Sequence record: NC_019517.1
Length of the DNA stretch: 64,000 nucleotides
Reading direction: 5' to 3' (one strand)
Origin: Escherichia phage FV3
Shown: one piece after another, positions 17,688-64,000 of the stretch
How positions within the stretch are numbered: position 1 is the first letter of the stretch
How the letters are laid out: every line of letters starts with the position of its first letter
Notes under the pieces: model-generated
What the model was told of the DNA's origin: nothing
Database searches by the model: none
What the model saw: only the letters and a program-made list of their open reading frames with translations
Position numbers and translations under genes: made by a program

Positions 17688-17918
17688 ATGAGTCATAACT
17701 CCAAGTGGAAGGATCTTGGTTTTGCAAGTCGGGCAGAGTATGTTGGTTGGCTTTGGTTCAACGGTCTGACAAACGATATTAAAATGTATGATGATGTTTA
17801 TTATGATGAATATACAGGTAAAATTATAAATATCTCTGTAGAAGAGGATACTTTTATCCAACAAGACACTGATACCTGCCTTGATAAATACGTTGATGAA
17901 GTGGAGGAAGCAAATTGA
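17688..17918 (+). CDS. hypothetical protein (76 aa)
   Basis: internal ATG with SD AAGGTGG; track ORF 17610..17918. Confidence 0.4.
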   Translation: MSHNSKWKDLGFASRAEYVGWLWFNGLTNDIKMYDDVYYDEYTGKIINISVEEDTFIQQDTDTCLDKYVDEVEEAN

Positions 17919-20230
17919 TCACCAAGGTAATTAAAAGCAACGGATGTGAAGTGGCATTCGATCCAGAACGTTTAAATAAGGCAGCTATTTTCGGTGACGA
18001 CGGTAACGGCAATTGGTCACATATTGCACTTGATGCATACAAACGGCTGTATGATGGGTGTACAACCAAAGAAGTTAACCAAGCTATCATAGACTCCTGT
18101 GTTAGCCGTAAAGACGAAGCTCATTCTCGTATGGCTGGTCGTGTTCTTATCGGTCAGATTTATAAAGAGGCTTTTGGAGGATTTACAAAGATCCCTTCCT
18201 TACCCTCATTTTACAATACCATGGTTGATAAAGGGTATTGGGAGGATATGGGTTATAGCTTTACCGAGTTAAACACTTTAGACGCTGTTATTGATCACAG
18301 TAAAGATCTCGGTTATGGCTATGCAGTCCTTAAACAGTTTCGCGACAAATATGGGATCAAGGATACTCTTAAAGACACCCTGTTTGAATCTCCCCAGATG
18401 ATGTTTATGGGGATAGCAATGGCTGTCATGAAGAATATGCCGAAAGAACGTCGTATCAACGATGTTGTAAAATTATACACTTATCTGTCGGACTTGAAGA
18501 TTAATGCCCCGACACCGTACTTAAACGGTCTACGCACAGGTAAGACAGGGTATGCATCTTGTTGCGTAATAAAAGCTGACGATACAGCAAAATCTATTGG
18601 TGTGGCACGTGAAGTTGCGTACACAATGACGGTTAACCAAGCAGGTATTGGCTACTATCTATCATCAAGATCTGCAGGTGATGGTGTTCGTGGTAACACT
18701 ATTAAACATATGGGCAAGCTTCCATATTATCGAGGCATTGATGCTGGGGTTAAGGAGAATAGACAACAATCACGCGGAGGTTCGGCAACGGTATCATTCC
18801 TTGCGCTAGATCCCCAGATTGATGAACTGATCCGTTTGAGAAACCCTATGACTGTTGCTTCAAAAAGAATCAACACTATGGACTACTCTATAGGTATTAA
18901 TAGATCATTTATCAACCGTGTGGCTAAGAATTTAGATTGGATGCTTGTTTCTTATAAGCACGCACCTCAACTGCACGAGGGTATCTTCACCATGTCTATG
19001 GATGAGTTTGATGCAGAGGTTGATCGTATCGCTAAAGATGACAGCATTCCTAAAACATGGATCCGTGCTAGAGACCTTGCTGTTGAACTGATCACGCAGC
19101 GTACCGAGGTAGGCAGGCTGTATGTGTACTGGACAGATGAGATGAATAGGCATACACCTTTTAAAGATGTAATCTATTCAAGTAATCTGTGTGCAGAGAT
19201 AGCCCTTCCGACAAAAGGCTATTCAGATATGCGTAATATCTTCAAGTACGATGCTGATGATGGTGAGGTTGCATTGTGCTTCCTATCATCCCTTGTAGCT
19301 GGAAGGGTTACCCCAGAGGAGTATGAGGATGTTGCATACTACACTGTGCTTATGATTGACAATGTTATGGAAATCATGACATATCCGTATGAAAATATGG
19401 AGAGCACTGTTAAAAAACGCAGATCCATCGGGGTTGGCCTTACCAATATTGCACATTTTATTGCCAGCCACAAGGTTGCTTACGGGTCTCCTGAAAGTAA
19501 ACAGCTTGTTCACGATCTTGCAGAGCTTCACAGCTACAGCTTGCATAAGGCAAGTTTACGATTGGCAAAAGAGCGTGGTGTCTGCGAGTGGATGCATAAA
19601 ACAAAATACCCAGAGGGTTGGTTACCAATCGACACTTATAACAAAGAGGTCGATAGTGTGGTGAAAGATCCTTCTCTTAAGCAGGATTGGGAAGGGTTAC
19701 GTAAAGAAATTATTGAAAACGGTGGACTACGTAATAGCGTTCTTGAAGCATATATGCCTAATGAAAGCTCCTCGTTGGCAACAAACACAACTAACGGGGT
19801 TTATCCTGTCCGTGAGCACATTATCTTTAAAAAGTCGCCACAAGGACAGGTGCTGTTTATCGTTCCTGAATATGATGAACTGAAAGAGTATTATACCTCG
19901 GCTTGGGACGTTGATACTAACGACATGATTGATATGTATGCTGTGATTCAAAAATTCACAGGACAGGCAATCAGTGCTGACCTATATATTGATTACACCA
20001 AGTTGAAAGATGGTAAAATTTCAATGAAGGAGCAGCTTGGGTATCTTATCCGTGCTACTAAATTCGGGATGAAGACATGGTATTACTTAAACTCTCGGGT
20101 TGGTGCTGGTGACTCTTTGACAGAGGAGCTTCACGCGAAGAAACAGGCTGAAGATGAAACCAGAAAGAACTATCCTTTGATTGCAGATAGTTCAGTTGAA
20201 GATCCGTATTGCGAAAGTTGTGCACTGTAA
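17915..20230 (+). CDS. nrdA: ribonucleotide reductase class I alpha subunit
   Basis: 771 aa; N-terminal ATP cone, active-site NLCAEI block, C-terminal CESCAL. Confidence 0.95.
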   Translation: MITKVIKSNGCEVAFDPERLNKAAIFGDDGNGNWSHIALDAYKRLYDGCTTKEVNQAIIDSCVSRKDEAHSRMAGRVLIGQIYKEAFGGFTKIPSLPSFYNTMVDKGYWEDMGYSFTELNTLDAVIDHSKDLGYGYAVLKQFRDKYGIKDTLKDTLFESPQMMFMGIAMAVMKNMPKERRINDVVKLYTYLSDLKINAPTPYLNGLRTGKTGYASCCVIKADDTAKSIGVAREVAYTMTVNQAGIGYYLSSRSAGDGVRGNTIKHMGKLPYYRGIDAGVKENRQQSRGGSATVSFLALDPQIDELIRLRNPMTVASKRINTMDYSIGINRSFINRVAKNLDWMLVSYKHAPQLHEGIFTMSMDEFDAEVDRIAKDDSIPKTWIRARDLAVELITQRTEVGRLYVYWTDEMNRHTPFKDVIYSSNLCAEIALPTKGYSDMRNIFKYDADDGEVALCFLSSLVAGRVTPEEYEDVAYYTVLMIDNVMEIMTYPYENMESTVKKRRSIGVGLTNIAHFIASHKVAYGSPESKQLVHDLAELHSYSLHKASLRLAKERGVCEWMHKTKYPEGWLPIDTYNKEVDSVVKDPSLKQDWEGLRKEIIENGGLRNSVLEAYMPNESSSLATNTTNGVYPVREHIIFKKSPQGQVLFIVPEYDELKEYYTSAWDVDTNDMIDMYAVIQKFTGQAISADLYIDYTKLKDGKISMKEQLGYLIRATKFGMKTWYYLNSRVGAGDSLTEELHAKKQAEDETRKNYPLIADSSVEDPYCESCAL

Positions 20231-20268: not shown

Positions 20269-21357
20269 ATGTCCGTATTTAATACTGAGAACACTGCTCA
20301 TAAAACTGGTGATTATCCGCTGTTTCTAGGACAGCAGATGGGGATGTACGACTCTATTAACAAAAAGTATCCACAGCTGTTTGAACTATACAAAAAACAA
20401 AAAGAACAAGATTGGGCAGAGGACGAAGTAGATTTGTCACAGTCTATTTCTGATTTCGTAACATGCTCAAAGTCAACTTACGATGTGATGGTGCAGACAC
20501 TGATGTGGCAATGGGAGGCAGACAGTGTTGCAGCAAGATCTATCATTTGTCTGTTTTCACCATTTATCACCAACAGTGAGCTTTTCACCTTGTTGATGAA
20601 GCAGTCTGAGATTGAGGTTCTTCATGCACTAACTTACTCAGAGATTGTTAGACAATGCCTTCCTAATGCTCGCGAGATTATAGAAGAGATTCAGGAAAAC
20701 CAGAACGTGCTGAGCAGATCTGGAATTATTGTCAAATATATGCAAGAGCTTGAGGTTATTGGTGCAAAATACCGACTGGATCCTTCCAGTGTTGAAGAAG
20801 ATGTTGTACGGAAATGTATCCTTAGAGCACTTTTTGCACTTTTAGCGCTAGAAAGTATTGAGTTTATTGCAAGTTTTGCATGTACGTTCGCAGTAGCTGA
20901 GCAAGGTATTTTTGTTCAAGTGGCACAACTTGTTCAAAAAATTATGCTTGATGAAATGCTGCATTCGAAAGGTGATTTTGCTATCATCGATATCCTGCTT
21001 GATGATCCTGCATGGGAGCAAAGCTTCCTTGAGATTAAGGGTGAGTTAAAAGAAATTCTTGACGAAGTGCGGACCAAGGAGTACGGTTGGAGTGACTATA
21101 TTTTCAGCGAAGGAAGAGCAATTATAGGTCTTAACTCACCATTACTTAAAGAATGGGTTGACTATAACTGCTCACCGATTTATGATTACTACAACATCGA
21201 CAAAGACTTTGTGCCGCCAACAAAAGACCCGCTACCGTTTATGCAGGTGTGGATGAAACCTTCACTGCAACAGACGGCTAACCAGGAAATGTCTAACACT
21301 GACTACCGCGTCAACACAACTGTTAACGACGCTGAAGAAGAAATTTGGGAGTTTTAA
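20269..21357 (+). CDS. nrdB: ribonucleotide reductase class I beta subunit
   Basis: 362 aa directly downstream of nrdA; conserved E/H-rich helices. Confidence 0.9.
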   Translation: MSVFNTENTAHKTGDYPLFLGQQMGMYDSINKKYPQLFELYKKQKEQDWAEDEVDLSQSISDFVTCSKSTYDVMVQTLMWQWEADSVAARSIICLFSPFITNSELFTLLMKQSEIEVLHALTYSEIVRQCLPNAREIIEEIQENQNVLSRSGIIVKYMQELEVIGAKYRLDPSSVEEDVVRKCILRALFALLALESIEFIASFACTFAVAEQGIFVQVAQLVQKIMLDEMLHSKGDFAIIDILLDDPAWEQSFLEIKGELKEILDEVRTKEYGWSDYIFSEGRAIIGLNSPLLKEWVDYNCSPIYDYYNIDKDFVPPTKDPLPFMQVWMKPSLQQTANQEMSNTDYRVNTTVNDAEEEIWEF

Positions 21358-21360
21358 TAT

Positions 21361-21639
21361 ATGAGCTGCGAAAAATCTTTTTTCATCATCATTTACGGTA
21401 AGGATAACTGCCCACATTGTGTAAGAGCAAAAGAATTTGCAGTCAGTAAAGGCATACCTTTCGTATACAAGACGCTAGGTGAAGGATACACAAAAGAAGA
21501 GCTTATCGAGAAGTGTAGCCCATTTGTTCCCAGAACGTTGCCTCAGATCTTCTTGGAAAGCAACCTTGACAGTATCCACATAGGTGGTGCTGACGATTTC
21601 ATCTCTTTTGTTAAGAATGGTTTTGGAGAGAAAAAGTGA
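21361..21639 (+). CDS. glutaredoxin/NrdH-like redoxin
   Basis: CPHC active site near N-terminus, 92 aa, between nrdB and nrdD. Confidence 0.75.
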   Translation: MSCEKSFFIIIYGKDNCPHCVRAKEFAVSKGIPFVYKTLGEGYTKEELIEKCSPFVPRTLPQIFLESNLDSIHIGGADDFISFVKNGFGEKK

Positions 21640-22496
21640 AAGTTGTAAAACGGGACGGTAGAGAAGAGTTTTATAACGGAATTAAGGTGATCAAGGCGGC
21701 AGAGTCCGCCTTACTTGAGTCTGGACATACTGAAGAAGAAGCTTACCGGATTGCCTGTGCGGTTAATGAAGTTGTTGCCAACAATCTGCCAACTGACCAG
21801 TGCACGATCTCTGTAAAAAATATCCATATCCTTGTTGAAGATGCTCTTATGGATATGGGTTTAAAATGTGCAGCCAGAGAATACATCCAGTATAGACAGA
21901 CAAGAGATAATAACAGAGAGGCAGGTGGAAAACTGCTTGCCGATATTAGTGGCTTCTTGGATCGTACTTGTGATGAATTTACAAAAGAAAACGCAAATAA
22001 GCCTACTAATCATGTACACACTCATCGTGACCTGCTTGCAGGAATCCTTAGCAAACATCTTGCATCAACACAGATCCTGCCAGACCGTGTCTCAGAAGAG
22101 CACAACAAAGGCTTCATCCATGTGCATGATCTTGACTACCTGATCAGTCCGTTAACAAACTGTTGTTTGGTGAATTATCCGGATATGCTGGAAAACGGAT
22201 TCAACATTGGCAACGCCCATGTCAGTAAGCCGAAGTCAATAGGGGTTGCAACAACAATCCTTAGCCAAATCTCTAGTGCAGTAGCTAGTGCTCAATATGG
22301 CGGTCAGACCATGAGTCATATTGATCATTATTTGGCACAGTATGCTGAAGCAACTTATGAGAAGAACCTTAAATTTTGTCAGGAACATTGGTTGCCAGAT
22401 GCTGAGACTGTTGCAATGCAAATGACAGATAAAGACGTGTTTGATAGTATGCAAACTTTGCTCTACCAAATCAATACGTTAACTTCTGTCAACGGT
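21636..22496 (+). CDS. nrdD: anaerobic ribonucleotide reductase NrdD, exon 1
   Basis: ATP cone VVKRDGREEFY; ends ...INTLTSVNG; track stop TAA is the first three intron nucleotides. Confidence 0.8.
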
Positions 22497-23294
22497 TAAC
22501 AAACTGGCCGTTGTAAAACTCTCCTAACCTCATAAGAGGGGTCGGTAAATCCGGCTAACGGGGAACGCTAAGGCGAAAGCTATGCCAATCCCGTGACTAG
22601 TTCTTACAGGAGTTGGAACGGTTGTAACGACTAACGAAAGGCAGAGATGCTTGACAAACATTTCTGAACCGAGTAGTGTAGGGGTTAGTTGAAATACTAA
22701 CTTCGAAAGGGAGAGACTCTATGAAAAAGATCATTCTTAATGGTGAAGAATCGAACTACGTGATTGATGAGGTGGGAAACGTATACGGAAAACGTGGAAT
22801 GCTGCACCCCATATTGTGGGGAGGTTATGGAAAAGGTAACAAGCATGTTAAACGCCGCTATATGTATTCTTTCAACCACAAAGGTAAGAAGATTCGAATC
22901 CAAACTTCAAGGGTTGTTGCCTTGTATTGTTTGCCAGATGTCCCAGAAGACCCTGAAAACTGGGAAGTGAATCATAAAGATGGCAATACATTGAATGATC
23001 ATCCGTCTAACCTAGAGTGGGTTTTGCCGGAAGATAATAAGAGACATGCTTTCCGAACAGGGCTTTGTCCAGGCAAGTGCTACAGGAAAGTGCAGGCATA
23101 CCAAGGGAAAACCTTGGTGGGTGAATATCCTTCACTCTATGCCTGTGCAAAAGCCTTAAATTTGAACGTAGGGAACGTCCATAGGGCTATCGAAGGAAAT
23201 GCCGAAGGTAAGCATCTCACAATAAAGGGTTATTATCTTATTGAAGTAGAGTAAGAGATAGTCTGGCCCTGTGGAAACACAGGGGTGGAGACAG
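22497..23294 (+). mobile_element. group I intron in nrdD carrying an HNH homing endonuclease ORF
   Basis: P1 pairing CAACGGT with GGCCGTTG, R-like GACTA and S-like GAGATAGTC elements, P9 hairpin with GAAA loop, terminal G; boundaries inferred. Confidence 0.65.
22721..23254 (+). CDS. intron-encoded HNH homing endonuclease
   Basis: HNH block EVNHKDGNTLNDHPSNLEW; C-terminal DNA-binding module; SD GGGAGAG. Confidence 0.85.
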   Translation: MKKIILNGEESNYVIDEVGNVYGKRGMLHPILWGGYGKGNKHVKRRYMYSFNHKGKKIRIQTSRVVALYCLPDVPEDPENWEVNHKDGNTLNDHPSNLEWVLPEDNKRHAFRTGLCPGKCYRKVQAYQGKTLVGEYPSLYACAKALNLNVGNVHRAIEGNAEGKHLTIKGYYLIEVE

Positions 23295-24554
23295 CAGACT
23301 CCATTCATCACATTAAGTTTAGGGCTGGATACTTCGGTCTTTGGTAGAATGATTACCAAAAACTACTTGAAAGTTCACAAAATGGGTCTTGGTGAAGAAC
23401 GGATCACACCTGTGTTCCCTAAAGTGCTGTTCTTCTTAGAGGAGGGTGTCAACATGAACCCTGGGGATCCTAACTACAATTTGAAACGATTGGCCCTAGA
23501 ATGCTCTGCAGAGCGGATTTATCCTGACTTTGTTTCTGTTCCGCTAAATCGTAAAGTGACAGGTTCAACAGACGGCAAAGTAACAAGCATGGGATGTAGG
23601 TCGTTCCTTGGCAAATACGTTACCCCGGAGGGTGATGAAAAATACCTTGGCAGATTCAACTTGGGTGTTGTTAGCCTTAACCTACCAATGATTGCGGCAA
23701 AAGCTAAGACGGAAGGTATTGATTTCTTTGCAGTTCTTGACGAATACTTGGATCTTGCATACGAGGCTCACCTTGTAAGGGTTAACCGTCTAAAAGGAAC
23801 AAAGGCAGGGCAGAACCCTATCATGTGGTGTGAAGGAGCTCTTGCTCGCCTGGATCCTGAAGAGAGTATCGATAAACTCTTCTATGACGGGTACGCTTCC
23901 ATCAGTATTGGGTATATTGGTGTGTATGAAACCTGTCAGATTTTGGGCAGAGAGGGTGACAAGGCTTTAGCTCTTGGAATCCTTCAGCACATGAAAGATG
24001 CTTGTGATCGATATAAGAAGGAAAGTGGACTAGCATTTAGCTTGTACGGCACACCTTCTGAGAGTTTATGCTATAAAGCTGCAACCTGTCTGGATCGTGA
24101 ATACCCAGAAGTGTTGAAGCACGAGCATGAATACCTCACCAACAGTTTCCATCAGCCGGTATGGATCAATAGCTCGCCTTTTGATAAGTGGAAGTATGAG
24201 GAAGGTTTTGCTATGATCTCCTCTGGTGGCAACATTGGGGACATAGAGACACCGAATCTGAAAAACAACTTAGATGCTTTAGAAGCTCTTGTTGATTTCG
24301 GATATAAACATATTATGTATTTTGGTATTAACCAGCCTGTGGATAAATGTCTTAAGTGTGGATTCTCTGGCGAGTTCAGTGCAACAGCTAAAGGCTTTGT
24401 ATGCCCAGAGTGTGGAAACCATGAAGAAGGAACGATCAGTGTGATCAGACGCGTATCCGGGTATCTGTCCAGTCCAAACTCCCGCCCTTACAATAAGGGT
24501 AAGCAAGCTGAGGTTATAGAACGGGTTAAGCACTACGGAAGTTGTGGTTGCTGA
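23295..24554 (+). CDS. nrdD: anaerobic ribonucleotide reductase NrdD, exon 2
   Basis: QTPFITLSLGLDTS aligns with E. coli NrdD QVPFSSLNFGTDTS; Zn ribbon CLKCG...CPECG; glycyl radical motif RVSGYL. Confidence 0.8.
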   Translation, partial: QTPFITLSLGLDTSVFGRMITKNYLKVHKMGLGEERITPVFPKVLFFLEEGVNMNPGDPNYNLKRLALECSAERIYPDFVSVPLNRKVTGSTDGKVTSMGCRSFLGKYVTPEGDEKYLGRFNLGVVSLNLPMIAAKAKTEGIDFFAVLDEYLDLAYEAHLVRVNRLKGTKAGQNPIMWCEGALARLDPEESIDKLFYDGYASISIGYIGVYETCQILGREGDKALALGILQHMKDACDRYKKESGLAFSLYGTPSESLCYKAATCLDREYPEVLKHEHEYLTNSFHQPVWINSSPFDKWKYEEGFAMISSGGNIGDIETPNLKNNLDALEALVDFGYKHIMYFGINQPVDKCLKCGFSGEFSATAKGFVCPECGNHEEGTISVIRRVSGYLSSPNSRPYNKGKQAEVIERVKHYGSCGC

Positions 24555-24617: not shown

Positions 24618-24734
24618 ATGTCTACAGGTATTTATAAAATTTGCAAGTGTGGTTGTCATTGCAATCTTCGTTGGTGTAAGGCACTGGACGATTTTATTTG
24701 GCATTGTCCTAAATGCGACGCGGAGTATGTATGA
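24618..24734 (+). CDS. Cys-rich micro-protein (38 aa)
   Basis: SD GGAGGTG, then MSTGIYKICKCGCHCNLRWCKALDDFIWHCPKCDAEYV; TGA overlaps nrdG ATG. Confidence 0.4.
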   Translation: MSTGIYKICKCGCHCNLRWCKALDDFIWHCPKCDAEYV

Positions 24735-25204
24735 ATATTGCCGGGTATACAGAGATATCTTACACCGAGGGACCAGGTATTAGGACAGCTTTGTGGGTAT
24801 CTGGGTGCCCACACGCTTGTCCTGGTTGCTTTAATCAAGCATTTTGGTCAAAAGATAAAGGAAGAGTGTTCACCGAAGAAGATTTGCAGAAAATTTTGTC
24901 GGATTTAGACAATGAATCTGTATGCGGTATTTCTTTACTAGGTGGAGAGCCTTTGGCTACTTATAATGAGCCAGGTATTATTGACCTTATGAGGAGAATT
25001 AAGGAAAAGTTTGGTGACAAGAAAACTATTCTTGTGTATACTGGGTTCACATTTGAGCATATCTCTAGTGATGTTCTTAAACTGGCTGATATCGTCATTG
25101 ATGGAAAGTATGTAAAAGATTTACCAACCAAGAAACCATTCCGAGGCAGCGATAACCAAAGAATGTTTAAAAAGGTAGCAGGAGGTTGGGTTCAGGTTGA
25201 CTAA
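24731..25204 (+). CDS. nrdG: anaerobic RNR activating enzyme (radical SAM)
   Basis: CPHACPGC (CxxxCxxC) cluster; follows nrdD. Confidence 0.85.
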   Translation: MNIAGYTEISYTEGPGIRTALWVSGCPHACPGCFNQAFWSKDKGRVFTEEDLQKILSDLDNESVCGISLLGGEPLATYNEPGIIDLMRRIKEKFGDKKTILVYTGFTFEHISSDVLKLADIVIDGKYVKDLPTKKPFRGSDNQRMFKKVAGGWVQVD

Positions 25205-60801: not shown

Positions 60802-61155
60802 TTAGTGACAATCGCCCCAGTTACGACCACACAAGTATTCACCTGTGATCTGGAACGGAACGCCCATCATTTTAGAAGCTTGCCAGAAGCAATGCACCAC
60901 CATTTCGCCCACAGGGCTCCAGATAAGTTCAAGCTTTCCGTCCTCGTTCAAGATAGGATCGTATACCGTATTTCCATCCTTGTCAACCACTTCGTTTCCG
61001 TCCTCATCCTTGCGTGCCTTTTTGTACTTATGACCGTCGAACACATGAAGTTTGGCCTCCTGCTCTGCCTTAAATGCTTCCAGTTCTTCGATTGTGTCGA
61101 AGGTGTACACAGTCTTATACTTCGGTGTGTCAGGTACTTGAAGTTGGTACTCATC
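60802..61155 (-). CDS. DNA polymerase family A, exon 2 (C-terminal)
   Basis: begins DEYQLQ, completing motif C HDE; ends ...QITGEYLCGRNWGDCH like T7 gene 5 ...LDTEGKMGPNWAICH. Confidence 0.7.
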   Translation of the reverse strand, partial: DEYQLQVPDTPKYKTVYTFDTIEELEAFKAEQEAKLHVFDGHKYKKARKDEDGNEVVDKDGNTVYDPILNEDGKLELIWSPVGEMVVHCFWQASKMMGVPFQITGEYLCGRNWGDCH

Positions 61156-61997
61156 CAACAGTTCAGGTAGGTCGTTAAGCTACCCCGCACCATTACGTGC
61201 ATAGCCATACAGTTTCCCGTATGGATCGGACTATCTCACTGCCTTGTTACCAAGGCACCTCTCATTTCGACCGCACTTGCTGGCCTACTCTACTCGCTTC
61301 TTCACACCAAACTATGTTGGAGCTATGCTTTCGATAGTCTCTGAACGTTACTACCAGGTGTAGTTTTTAGAGATATGTTTCCACTGTCTTCTTTGCTTTA
61401 TGGCCCTGACCGTTTCATAAGGATACCCAAGATCCCTAATCTCACATTGTCGTAGACCGCTCTGTAACAGTTCGCAAATCTCAATTACCTCATCCTCGGT
61501 CAGCACAGCATTGGCATTATACTCGCCGACTGGCCTTACTCTGAGGTCATTATCGTAGGCGTGTTTGATATTTCCACCAGGGGTGGTCCACTCCAGGTTC
61601 CAGTATGCATTGTTGTACTTATTTCCATCCTTATGGTTCACCCATGTGAGCCTTTCAGGATCAGGGTTTGATACAAAGCATTCGGCAACTAAGTGGTGGA
61701 CACCTTTTGTGTACTGCTTCCCCTCTATGAACATGGTCACGCAAAGGTAACCTCGACCATTATCAAAACAAAACATTGTTGTATGATCACGTTTCGATAA
61801 AGGTATTGTTCCATCATCAAACACGGTATACCCGTGATAATCAGCTGATCTAGCCATTTTAACTACACCCCTTTAGTCTTCGCTGCGGATTAGCATATTG
61901 AGCTTTTACCATGTTTAGGTGTAAAAGTCAACTTAGCCTTCCCGTCAATTAAAGAGGTTTTCGACGTGCATCACTGCACGAAGCCACAATGTTATTT
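61156..61997 (-). mobile_element. group I intron in DNA polymerase gene carrying an HNH homing endonuclease
   Basis: on minus strand: P-like AATTGACGGGAAGG, Q AATCCGCAGC, R GTTCAGAGACTA, S GAGATAGTCC; P1 exon CCAT with GTGG; terminal G before exon 2. Confidence 0.7.
61351..61857 (-). CDS. intron-encoded HNH homing endonuclease
   Basis: HNH block WVNHKDGNKYNNAYWNLEW; paralogous to the nrdD intron endonuclease. Confidence 0.85.
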   Translation of the reverse strand: MARSADYHGYTVFDDGTIPLSKRDHTTMFCFDNGRGYLCVTMFIEGKQYTKGVHHLVAECFVSNPDPERLTWVNHKDGNKYNNAYWNLEWTTPGGNIKHAYDNDLRVRPVGEYNANAVLTEDEVIEICELLQSGLRQCEIRDLGYPYETVRAIKQRRQWKHISKNYTW

Positions 61998-64000
61998 ATG
62001 GTAATAAATAATACGACGAACACCTTCATCGTACCACCCACGCTTCACCATTTGGTGGTGCATGAGTATCCCAACTAAATCACACAACGATGCACCGCCA
62101 TTTTGTTGGTATGCATTAAGTAAAGAGTGTTTAGATCGGGTCCAGATGGCATGACCATCAAAAGAGTAGATAAACTTCTTACCAGTTGCTTCCCAGAATT
62201 TCTCCAGATCCTCTTTACGCCCCTTAAGACCGGGGTTGGCATCCCAAAGCGCATCGATTACCCTTTGCCCCAACTCTGGAGAGATATCCAGCATGTCTGC
62301 AACTTTATCTTTTTGTGCCCCGTACATAACCCCATACGTGATAGGTTTACCGTCGTTACGAGACACCTCTCTGCCTGCTACTTTTGTATATGCCTCAGCA
62401 TTGTTTTGGTGTGCGTCCCCGTTACTTACAACATCATAATACAGGCCGTTGTCAAACTCAAAGGCACCCCAAGCCCCGATAAGCTGCTCTAAGTTAGACC
62501 CGTCAATACCGATCTCAAAGTATCCTGGAGGAACACCCCACAGACTACGCATCTCTTTACCCATAACCACTTTAGGAGATGGTTTAGGCATGTTTGCACA
62601 AATACTGTGTTTCTGTCTGGAAGTGTTTGTTAATCCAGAACTTTTAGCAGGAAGCTTATGGTCAATCTTCAAACGTGGGTGATTAAGAAGACCAGTATCA
62701 ACCTTATCCTCCTTGATTGGATCAAGTACCGATCTACGGTTTCGCAATGATAACCACAAAACGATATCTTTAGCCATCTCTCCGTTCAATTTTTCAAGAT
62801 TAGGGCATAGGTGCCCAAACGTGTCTTTCAGTTGTGGAGAGGTAATAAGTGCTCTGGCCTTTCTACGTATCTTCCCAAACACTTCCTTTTTAACCCTTTC
62901 TGAGTTAGGGAAGCTTCGGAACTTATGCACAGTTGTCTGAAACTTGGCATCAGTTTTGTTCCAGAAGTTGATAATTAGGTCACAATACTCTGACTCCAAA
63001 AGCTCGTCCATATATGCATATACTCGTGCATCAACATCTGCATCAGGTAAAGCTTTCTTCTTGCTGTCTTTAGTTACATCCTTAGTTCTCCACATTGTTG
63101 GGAGCCAACCAGCACTGATCAGGTATCTCTTAATATCGTCCTGGTTGCTGATCTTCATAGGTATCTTGCAGTCAGGCATCCGCTTCTGCTGTAGATCACT
63201 TATTGCCTGGTCCATTAGCTCTTTAGGTAAAGGATGTGGTGTAGAGGTCCCTTTAATATACCCCCTTAAGAAATCAGCCATCTTATCGGGATCTTTGCAG
63301 CCCATCTCTTCACACCATTTTATCCCCATTTTGCTGACATCCCCTGTGGAGGTAAATGCTCGCTTAGGAGGAGCTTTGAACTCTAAAGCGCTCATGTCCA
63401 CAGGATAGCCAAGCTTGTCTTTTAACCATTTCCAACCATTATTGGAGATTGTCCCATCCTGGTTAAACGGCTTTTCAGGGAACTTAGGCCGCTGAGACAT
63501 TGATAACTCTTTTAAAGGAAGTTGTGGTTCAACACGATCAGCGATCTCTTTCATCCACGCATCGCAGCGGTCACGTAAAGCAATAGCCCCATCTATGTCG
63601 AAATACACACCCTGTCGAGCCTGCAGCTCCATCAGGAAATGCTGCAGCATGCCTCGGCGTAATGCATTCTTCCAGGTAATCTTCTTGAATCCTTTAGGCT
63701 TCTCTTTGGCAGGGTCATACATAAAGTTCTGCATGTCAGATTTGCCGTAGAATACACCTTTTGATTCCGCTACCAACTCTTTCCAGAGCAACTCCTGGAT
63801 GATAACGTCCTCGAACACACGATCCACATATTTCCACAGCGGAAGCTCACGCCAGTCATCGATTTGAACTTTCTGGTTACCAAGGGCGTAGCCCCATGCC
63901 ATAAGGCCATGAGGCCCAACAGGCTGCATTTTCTTGGTAACTGGATTAAATACTGCGTCCGGACAACCTTTTGGCAAAGGTCGGTCAGGCCACAAGATTC
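61998..64000 (-). CDS. DNA polymerase family A, exon 1 (partial; continues beyond window)
   Basis: motif B GKPITYGVMYGAQKDKVADML; FDGHAIWTRSKHSLLNAYQQNGGASLCD aligns with T7 DNAP LDGRKVHVRSPHAALNTLLQSAGALICK; ends ...RRIIYYH at motif C. Confidence 0.7.

Follow-up and report, generated by a model that had tools for sequence, protein, structure and literature searches.

The nrdD gene in the stretch of DNA analysed here, a 64-kb window from a Vequintavirus (rV5-like phage) of E. coli, lies in two reading frames, and an ORF for an HNH protein stands between the two parts. Is the intervening sequence an intron that is removed from the transcript, or an element that leaves the gene in two pieces? 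A sequence-only reading had proposed an interruption of nrdD at 21636-24554 by a group I intron, and the interruption is found at these positions. We put at about 0.9 the probability that the gene gives rise to a precursor with a 798-nt group I intron of IA2 type, which is spliced out at NG|QTPF and carries a homing HNH endonuclease.

Exons and limits of the insert

At its GTG start the ORF of exon 1 (21636-22499) overlaps with the glutaredoxin stop codon. Its last residues are ...INTLTSVNG, followed by TAA at 22497-22499; as had been read earlier, this stop codon is the first triplet of the insert. The frame of exon 2 runs from 23295 as ...QTPFITLSLGLDTS. When 21636-22496 is joined to 23295-24554, a protein of 706 aa results, in which Pfam recognizes an ATP-cone (PF03477, 50.1 bits, aa 1-91), NRDD (PF13597, 530 bits, from aa 118) and Gly_radical (PF01228, 79.5 bits). 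The joined protein is a class III ribonucleotide reductase, NrdD, with both the NRDD catalytic domain and the C-terminal glycyl-radical domain present. Its alignment to NrdD orthologs, which had been suggested as a check, is free of gaps over the junction both with T4 NrdD (1h78, E=5e-165; ...lfssNG|QTPFvt...) and with a second solved NrdD (9d3x). Downstream of nrdD, at 24713-25204, lies the activase gene nrdG, which is annotated so in relatives.

The limits of the insert come from alleles that do not have it. A 400-nt query made of the joined exons finds a single unbroken 400-nt match in many Vequintavirus genomes. At the junction the aligned intron-less allele of YP-6 reads ...GTCAACGGG|CAAACCCC..., and across the insertion site the allele of YP-6 and JES2013 reads ...TCTGTCAACGGGCAAACCCCATTC.... 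In the YP-6 alignment the two boundaries share no repeated bases, which puts the insertion at exactly 22497-23294; it separates the codons of Gly287 and Gln288. The junction NG|QTPF that had been predicted is the insertion point itself. Intron-bearing and intron-less alleles differ there by synonymous markers in the flanks (GGT|CAG ACT against GGG|CAA ACC). About 120 Vequintavirus records show three states of nrdD: about 80 are intron-less, 14 have a 257-nt intron without an ORF, and about 26 have the ORF-containing intron. Since all three kinds of allele meet at one point, the boundaries are exact to the base, and close relatives are polymorphic for the presence of the insert at this one precise site.

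The codons on either side were compared with those of phage AlexBoehm. Exon 1 has 38 codon differences, with a synonymous to non-synonymous ratio of 38:0, and exon 2 has 85 synonymous and 21 non-synonymous changes. Judged by these changes, both exons are under purifying selection. The gene is not needed for aerobic laboratory growth, and the viability of intron-bearing isolates is therefore no proof of splicing.

Helices of the intron and their covariation

The whole window was compared with 4227 Rfam families, and the matches at E<0.05 were to RF00028 at two intron loci only, with scores of 25.1 and 30.4 bits. The covariance-model scan for a group I intron, proposed in the sequence-only reading, thus did match the nrdD intron (25.1 bits; E = 5e-4 locally, 0.028 window-wide), but below the curated gathering cut-off of 50 bits; at the gathering level the 64-kb window has no Rfam match. 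An ORF-less relative matches RF00028 over the full length of the model, likewise below gathering (29.8 bits, E=2e-4). All the helices of a group I intron are nevertheless present in the insert, and its conserved core can be located (Table 1). The P1 pairing, the R- and S-like elements on either side of the ORF and the P9 hairpin with its GAAA loop had all been named beforehand, and each is present.

Table 1. Positions of the exons, the intron, its structural elements and the HNH ORFs in the window
Feature	Position	Strand	Remarks
nrdD exon 1	21636..22496	+	287 codons, with N-terminal ATP-cone; from the ORF list
P1 5' strand, exon CAACGGU	22490..22496	+	pairs with GCCGUUG 22507-22513
Group I (IA2-like) intron, 798 nt	22497..23294	+	presence/absence against intron-less alleles; RF00028 match
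Internal guide sequence	22504..22513	+	CUG 22504-22506 for P10; GCCGUUG 22507-22513 is the P1 3' strand
P3 5' strand CUCUCC	22519..22524	+	six Watson-Crick pairs with 22710-22715
Two extra hairpins (22528-22539, 22541-22555)	22528..22555	+	between P3 and J3/4-P4; RNAfold, 8 sequences
P4-P5 domain	22558..22594	+	P4 is ACGGGG/UCCCGU; P5 has a GAAA loop
P6 hairpin	22601..22618	+	compared with the ORF-less form, two pairs changed on both sides (compensatory) and two on one side
J6/7 and P7 5' strand, 'R' element GUUGUAACGACUAAC	22621..22635	+	fits the RF00028 consensus UUCAaAGACUA
P7.1 (22642-22666) and P7.2 (22681-22704), then GAAA	22642..22704	+	8-bp and 9-bp helices; IA2-type peripheral hairpins
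P3 3' strand GGAGAG	22710..22715	+	doubles as Shine-Dalgarno sequence of the endonuclease ORF
P8 5' strand ACUCUAU	22716..22722	+	7 bp with 23246-23252; takes in the first two bases of the ORF start codon, A and U
Intron ORF, 177 aa, I-HmuI-like HNH, putative homing endonuclease	22721..23254	+	fills the P8 loop
P8 3' strand GUAGAGU	23246..23252	+	last two codons of the ORF and U of its stop codon
J8/7 and P7 3' strand, 'S' element AAGAGAUAGUCU	23253..23264	+	posterior probability high in the alignment to RF00028 AAGAUAUAGUCU
P9 hairpin, GAAA tetraloop	23266..23285	+	a single compensatory change, U-A to C-G, relative to the ORF-less form
Terminal G (omega-G), last intron base	23294..23294	+	position set by intron-less alleles
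nrdD exon 2	23295..24554	+	419 codons and stop; contains the glycyl-radical domain
Second HNH ORF	61351..61857	-	in the other intron of the window

Both splice sites have the features of group I introns. At the 5' site U22496 forms a U·G pair with G22507, and P1 carries a compensatory change from C-G to A-U in AlexBoehm and L009. Exon-2 CAG can pair with CUG 22504-22506, next to the P1 strand, as a P10 of 3 bp only. The omega-G is kept in the ORF-less form as well.

Helix P3 shows a swap from G-C to C-G in the ORF-less form, and other phage introns that share the layout preserve its complementarity in six unrelated versions of the strands; it corresponds to the UCUGCC/GGCAGA helix of T4 sunY. 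The 5' strand of P3 was placed by cmscan just before J3/4, a pairing that is not conserved in the window copy, and this placement was rejected in favour of the upstream strand, which covaries. Pairs in P4 and P5 have changed on both sides among 10 introns (RNAalifold), and the P4-P5 segment is identical in the ORF-less and ORF-containing forms. A CUAAG...UAUG motif in P5 resembles a tetraloop receptor. One pair of P6 is mismatched in the window copy. P7 consists of GACUA 22629-22633 and UAGUC 23259-23263; a second GACUA, at 22595, was considered as its 5' strand and is ruled out by the Rfam consensus and by T4 sunY. The second of the two extra hairpins covaries, both by RNAalifold and between the two intron forms. 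Altogether 47 helix pairs could be compared between these forms; 12 vary, by six compensatory and five compatible one-sided changes, and one is broken. The full helix set and its compensatory changes bear out the assignment to group I. The subgroup, IA2, was assigned by inspection, from the extra hairpins P7.1 and P7.2 that follow P7 and precede the P3 3' strand.

A structural parallel is the IA2 intron of T4 (sunY), which carries I-TevII and has the same host gene, nrdD. Both introns start with UAAC, with an in-frame stop right after the splice-site U, and both have P3 directly after the guide sequence, with no P2. P7.1, P7.2, GAAA, P3', P8, a P7 strand of the AGAUAUAGUCU type and P9 follow in the same order. 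The T4 intron, however, interrupts its gene within the codon for Tyr180, at a point 32 nt (10 codons) upstream of the window site, and its ORF encodes a GIY-YIG enzyme and lies 3' of P9, whereas the window ORF encodes an HNH enzyme and lies in P8. The two extra hairpins are absent from T4 sunY; in T4 sunY, td and Twort merely 3-4 nt separate the P3 5' strand from J3/4. A blastn comparison of the window intron with the T4 intron gave no significant nucleotide similarity.

The endonuclease ORF, the proposed mechanism and its alternatives

The ORF in the P8 loop is preceded by GGAG, 7 nt upstream of the AUG at 22721. Its product contains HNH_3 (PF13392; 29.4 bits against a cut-off of 24.8) at aa 78-107, with the sequence NHKDGNTLNDHPSNLEWVLPEDN and an intact H-N-(N/H) motif, and it matches phrog_59 (E=2e-26). 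The C-terminal I-HmuI NUMOD-like domain (PF22083) is matched weakly, at 18.4 bits, below the cut-off of 27. In a phmmer search of the PDB the sole match was I-HmuI (1u3e; E=5e-4, aa 8-160). The identification of the product as a putative HNH_3 endonuclease holds up on these matches. I-HmuI is encoded by the DNA polymerase intron of Bacillus phage SPO1 and has 174 aa against 177 for the window ORF. The two proteins, both encoded in phage group I introns, can be aligned almost from end to end, with the HKDGN...N core of the HNH motif included; identity is low, however, and both the host gene and the host bacterium differ. I-HmuI nicks its target strand-specifically.

The nrdD intron had been called the second in the window, and the first is indeed real: it lies inside the gene for DNA polymerase, which is encoded on the minus strand. 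The NHKDGN block that had been ascribed to both intron endonucleases is found in the ORFs at 22721-23254 (+) and 61351-61857 (-). They had further been called paralogous. They are homologous, with phrog_59 as the best match of both, but the relationship is distant (48% identical residues in a 48-aa stretch surrounding the HNH motif, with a pairwise E of 2e-8), and the term fits only in a loose sense.

From this anatomy we infer a course of splicing and homing. The ribozyme would fold into P1, P3-P8, P4-P6, P7 and P9, and the GAAA of L9 may contact the receptor-like motif in P5 and help to hold the fold. An external guanosine would attack after U22496, the U of the P1 U·G pair; P10 would position the 3' exon; and ligation of the exons after G23294 would give an mRNA for the full-length NrdD. 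The ligated junction is predicted to be ...GUCAACGGU|CAGACUCC..., also written ...GUCAACGGU|CAGACUCCAUUC.... Homing would follow in a mixed infection: the HNH enzyme is expected to introduce a nick or a cut close to the insertion site of an intron-less nrdD allele, into which the intron would then be copied by recombinational repair. Folding of the ribozyme and translation of the endonuclease should compete, because the Shine-Dalgarno sequence of the ORF is the 3' strand of P3 and its AUG lies within P8.

The same arrangement could be produced by a mobile endonuclease cassette that does not splice, with NrdD made as two associating polypeptides or nrdD inactivated. Such insertions of HNH genes are known in related phages (CB7_245, Aeh1; PMC7344957); in Aeromonas phage Aeh1 NrdA is split by mobE and the separate polypeptides associate. 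The dispensability of nrdD in aerobic conditions would permit either outcome, and a GTG at 23271, in the frame of exon 2, could start the second polypeptide. That GTG, however, sits within the P9 hairpin, and between the two intron forms the codons from 23271 to 23295 change non-synonymously, those from 23295 on synonymously. The compensatory changes in the helices, the selection on both exons and the 257-nt ORF-free version, which occupies the same site in 14 genomes and is matched by RF00028 over its full length, likewise speak for an RNA element, and we regard a cassette as improbable.

Still less probable is a group I intron that has decayed and no longer splices, in an nrdD pseudogene where the HNH gene persists as a selfish element. 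The sub-threshold Rfam scores and the P6 mismatch would fit such decay, but the core helices, the U·G pair and the omega-G are all intact, codon changes in the exons are overwhelmingly synonymous, and the intron is about 95% conserved among some 26 independent isolates. As for an assembly or frameshift artefact, an intein or a group II intron, these have only the two-frame appearance of nrdD in their favour and are refuted by the recurrent insert, the intron-less alleles and the Rfam scan, which leaves them next to no probability: the same insert of 798-800 nt is present in about 26 independently sequenced genomes, no group II family matched at E<0.05 in the 64-kb window, and an intein is impossible because the insert opens with an in-frame stop codon.

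Relatives and wider distribution

The intron is real but ordinary, and it is already known: GenBank entries of related genomes annotate it by joining the CDS of nrdD. FFH2, slur16, MaxBurger, WalterGehring, EmilHeitz, phiWec193 and other Vequintavirus records have the same intron at the same insertion site, with 94-95% nucleotide identity over the 2919-nt region and 98-99% amino-acid identity in the HNH ORF. Over the whole region no record is more than about 95% identical to the window copy, which is thus a slightly divergent allele. The BASEL records in GenBank join nrdD from two pieces into one CDS, inside which a 'putative homing endonuclease' is annotated, and the BASEL paper set intron boundaries by comparative genomics (PMC8594841). 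In the rV5 paper the terminase introns are the only introns described, and our literature search found no paper on the nrdD intron in rV5-like phages. In CB7, a member of the Vequintavirinae, RT-PCR showed splicing of HNH-containing introns in terL and the genes for DNA polymerase, nrdA and nrdB (PMC7344957).

Group I introns with homing endonucleases in ribonucleotide reductase genes of phages have been textbook examples since T4. Elements of the same kind occur in nrdB of T4/RB3 (I-TevIII), nrdE of Twort (I-TwoI), bnrdE/bnrdF of SPbeta and nrdA/nrdB of CB7, each a self-splicing intron with an HNH homing endonuclease in a conserved segment of the reductase gene (PMC3653736; PMC7344957). They occupy other genes or sites and have no detectable nucleotide homology to the window intron. 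The scientific gain is accordingly small, and the practical value lies in annotation. In many related records nrdD is divided into two or three genes or appears under hypothetical proteins, and in those of the relatives named above it starts 213 nt downstream of the start in the window; with this late start the ATP-cone is lost.

Searches of IMG/VR extend the distribution. The P4-P6-P7 pattern was found at two loci and the exact P5 pattern at one, and a 16-nt P7'/P9 pattern in 102 stretches, about 35 of which are related introns in other genes (nhmmer). In the intron family L068 the host exon ends ...LLSITNG and is not nrdD. The layout with two extra hairpins is shared by about 30 metagenomic phage introns from other genes. 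Among introns of this layout the Rfam scans covered the window copy and its Vequintavirus relatives, whose scores do not reach the gathering cut-off of RF00028.

These observations allow a wider reading, which we consider doubtful as a whole: that the intron represents an IA2 variant, possibly undescribed, with a two-hairpin domain between P3 and J3/4; that folding and translation are mutually exclusive, as the building of the ribosome-binding site and start codon into P3 and P8 would make them; and that the P7.1-P8 block is exchanged as a module. The differences between the ORF-less and ORF-containing forms span this whole block, which suggests module exchange rather than simple deletion of the ORF. 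A second polymorphic intron site is also present in Vequintavirus nrdD, and together with the three allele states it offers a convenient natural system for the cycle of gain and loss of homing introns.

Coding frames and limits of the insert

In the nrdD region the window shares about 95% identity with E. coli myophages of Vequintavirus (rV5-like), among them phiWec193, FFH2 and MaxBurger, and annotations of relatives back the gene names of the locus (table below). As the sequence-only reading had proposed, nrdD lies in two frames: an ORF from GTG 21636 ends ...INTLTSVNG and is followed by TAA at 22497-22499, and a second frame reads QTPFITLSLGLDTS... from 23295 to a stop at 24554. Joining 21636-22496 to 23295-24554 yields a 706-aa protein with ATP-cone, NRDD (530 bits) and glycyl-radical domains (Pfam). 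It aligns with NrdD orthologs as anticipated, without a gap across the junction in T4 NrdD (1h78, E=5e-165; ...FSSNG/QTPFVT...) and in a second solved NrdD, 9d3x. The GTG shares bases with the stop codon of the glutaredoxin gene. In GenBank, relatives (BASEL phages, YP-6, phita32) have nrdD annotated from an ATG equivalent to 21849; those CDSs thus lack the 71 N-terminal residues (21636-21848) that make up a full-length ATP-cone (Pfam, 50 bits, aa 1-91).

When the final 200 nt of exon 1 are joined to the initial 200 nt of exon 2, the resulting 400-nt query finds a single unbroken match, 400 nt long, in many Vequintavirus genomes, including YP-6, VB-EcoM-WM, PMBT16, PDX, nimi, JES2013 and JohannBauhin. 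The intron-less YP-6 allele reads ...GTCAACGGG/CAAACCCCATTC... at the site. The two boundaries share no repeated bases, which fixes the insert to the base at 22497-23294 (798 nt). In the exon-2 frame, intron forms with and without an ORF differ non-synonymously just upstream of 23295 and synonymously from there on, which marks 23295 as the first coding base.

Intron core and covariation

The only matches with E<0.05 in the window, among 4227 Rfam families, are to the group I intron family RF00028, at the nrdD locus and at 61206-62007 (minus strand). The covariance-model scan thus agrees with the earlier class assignment in the family matched, with a score (25.1 bits) under the gathering score of 50; a default Rfam scan consequently reports nothing. 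An ORF-less relative scores 29.8 bits over the full model length, also below 50. The intron anatomy is complete, and the P1 pairing and GAAA-capped P9 hairpin described from sequence were both located.

Features of the nrdD locus, the nrdD intron and the polymerase intron
Feature	Position	Remark
nrdA	17915-20230	
nrdB	20269-21357	
glutaredoxin	21361-21639	
nrdD	21636-24554	
nrdG	24713-25204	
P1	22490-22496/22507-22513	exon CAACGGU with GCCGUUG; U·G at splice site
P10	22504-22506	CUG with exon-2 CAG; adjoins P1 strand
P3	22519-22524/22710-22715	CUCUCC with GGAGAG
P4-P5	22558-22594	CUAAG/UAUG receptor-like motif
P6	22601-22618	
P7	22629-22633/23259-23263	GACUA with UAGUC
P7.1, P7.2	22642-22666, 22681-22704	
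P8	22716-22722/23246-23252	ACUCUAU with GUAGAGU
HNH ORF	22721-23254	177 aa
P9	23266-23285	GAAA loop
Terminal G	23294	
Polymerase intron	61156-61997, minus	RF00028, 30.4 bits
Polymerase intron HNH ORF	61351-61857, minus	168 aa, in P6 loop

The layout parallels that of the T4 nrdD (sunY) IA2 intron, including UAA as first triplet and the lack of P2. The P3 5' strand is separated from J3/4-P4 by two hairpins (22528-22555); T4 sunY has just UAAAA there. This two-hairpin layout, of mild interest, recurs in other genes, in about 30 phage introns from IMG/VR (the L068 family and loci L056, L007 and L099). L068 and about 30 other IMG/VR loci are ORF-less group I introns of about 255 nt on gut-metagenome phage contigs (e.g. 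L068 7448-7702, minus). They share the window intron's P1 sequence (exon CAACGGU, guide GCCGUUG); their host gene differs from nrdD, and its exon 1 ends ...YARYVDLLSITNG.

The intron would self-splice by the standard group I route, giving a full-length NrdD mRNA. The leading alternative, an insertion that does not splice and leaves NrdD split or dead, has three observations against it. A ribozyme-only form without an ORF exists. The helices covary: between ORF-containing (window, MaxBurger) and ORF-less forms (AlexBoehm, an IMG/VR contig), 35 of 47 shared helix pairs are unchanged, five carry compatible one-sided changes, six change on both sides with pairing kept (one each in P1, P3, the second extra hairpin and P9, two in P6) and one is broken. 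An IMG/VR scan with a 16-nt P7'/P9 pattern, followed by nhmmer, found about 35 related introns in genes other than nrdD, with the same helices and unrelated strand sequences; for ten of these, RNAalifold recovered P4, P5 and the second extra hairpin, with both-side changes in 9 of 18 pairs. Finally, exon 2 is under selection. In intron-bearing phages, exon 1 has 38 synonymous and no non-synonymous codon changes and exon 2 has 85 synonymous and 21 non-synonymous, which indicates purifying selection on both exons. Intron-less alleles, the RF00028 match, core helices and compensatory changes together bear out the interruption of nrdD by a group I intron.

By analogy, the closest experimental support for splicing is RT-PCR in the related Vequintavirinae phage CB7, in which HNH-containing introns of terL, DNA polymerase, nrdA and nrdB, not nrdD, were spliced (PMC7344957).

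Endonuclease ORF and polymerase intron

The intron ORF passes the Pfam threshold for HNH_3 (29.4 vs 24.8 bits), matches the I-HmuI NUMOD-like domain below threshold, and belongs to phrog_59. The sole PDB match, I-HmuI, is an HNH nicking enzyme encoded in an intron of Bacillus phage SPO1 (near full-length alignment, E=5e-4); the ORF's nearest relatives beyond Vequintavirus reach only 30-38% identity. The enzyme may nick or cut empty nrdD alleles in co-infection, and repair of the cut allele would copy the intron in.

The ORF occupies the P8 loop. The P3 3' strand doubles as its Shine-Dalgarno sequence (GGAG), the AUG falls inside the P8 5' strand, and the P8 3' strand borders on the stop codon. 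Intron ORFs that overlap core helices, and whose expression is hence controlled, are a known theme (PMC3984707); that P3 and P8 here contain the ORF's ribosome-binding site and start codon is of mild interest.

The other group I intron is likewise present, interrupting a family-A DNA polymerase gene. Polymerase exon 1 ends ...IIYYH at 61998 and exon 2 starts GAUGAA (DEYQLQV) at 61155, the 3' boundary being set from reading frame alone; the junction restores HDE, which we take to be family-A polymerase motif C. Both HNH ORFs carry the NHKDGN block. The suggested paralogy holds only in the sense of distant homology (48% identity over 48 aa, E=2e-8); the two are not close paralogues.

Prior annotation and allele states

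The T4 nrdD intron splits the Tyr180 codon of the same gene, 32 nt (10 codons) farther upstream, and carries the GIY-YIG enzyme I-TevII 3' of P9; as site and enzyme type differ, neither the insertion nor its endonuclease is the one seen here. The window's intron is already in databases and is not new. In BASEL records (MaxBurger, AlexBoehm, RudolfGeigy and others), nrdD is a CDS joined from two pieces, inside which a 'putative homing endonuclease' is nested, and comparative genomics was used in that collection to set intron boundaries (PMC8594841). FFH2 and others have an 'H-N-H homing endonuclease' annotated between two nrdD fragments. Our literature search found no paper describing or testing this nrdD intron; the rV5 genome paper treats terminase introns only (PMC3606486). 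The evidence supports a phage group I intron of an ordinary kind, annotated before, with a putative HNH homing endonuclease.

Among about 120 Vequintavirus records the site is empty in about 80 (e.g. YP-6, JES2013), holds a 257-nt insert without ORF in 14 (e.g. AlexBoehm, RudolfGeigy, CM1) and a 798-800-nt insert with ORF in about 26 (e.g. FFH2, MaxBurger). Synonymous differences cluster at the site (window 22494-22496 and 23295-23303 vs YP-6 locus L005 2698-2709): the codons are GGG/CAA ACC in intron-less YP-6, GGT/CAA ACC in ORF-less and GGT/CAG ACT in ORF-containing alleles. Possible reasons are the need for U at the splice site, P10 pairing, co-conversion tracts or target immunity to the endonuclease. 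Beyond ORF presence, the two forms diverge over the whole P7.1-P7.2-P3'-P8 block (window 22636-23252 vs ORF-less locus L001 1301-1375), and the flanking core is 86-100% identical, which suggests module exchange rather than simple ORF deletion.

Another nrdD intron, about 85 codons downstream and encoding a different ORF of about 169 aa, occurs in YP-6 (L005 3010-3759), phita32 (L002 2268-3017; RF00028, 35.3 bits), C2 and JEP1. The window lacks it and has the upstream intron only; YP-6 has the downstream one only, and phita32, C2 and JEP1 have both. This multi-state polymorphism of Vequintavirus nrdD is of mild interest.
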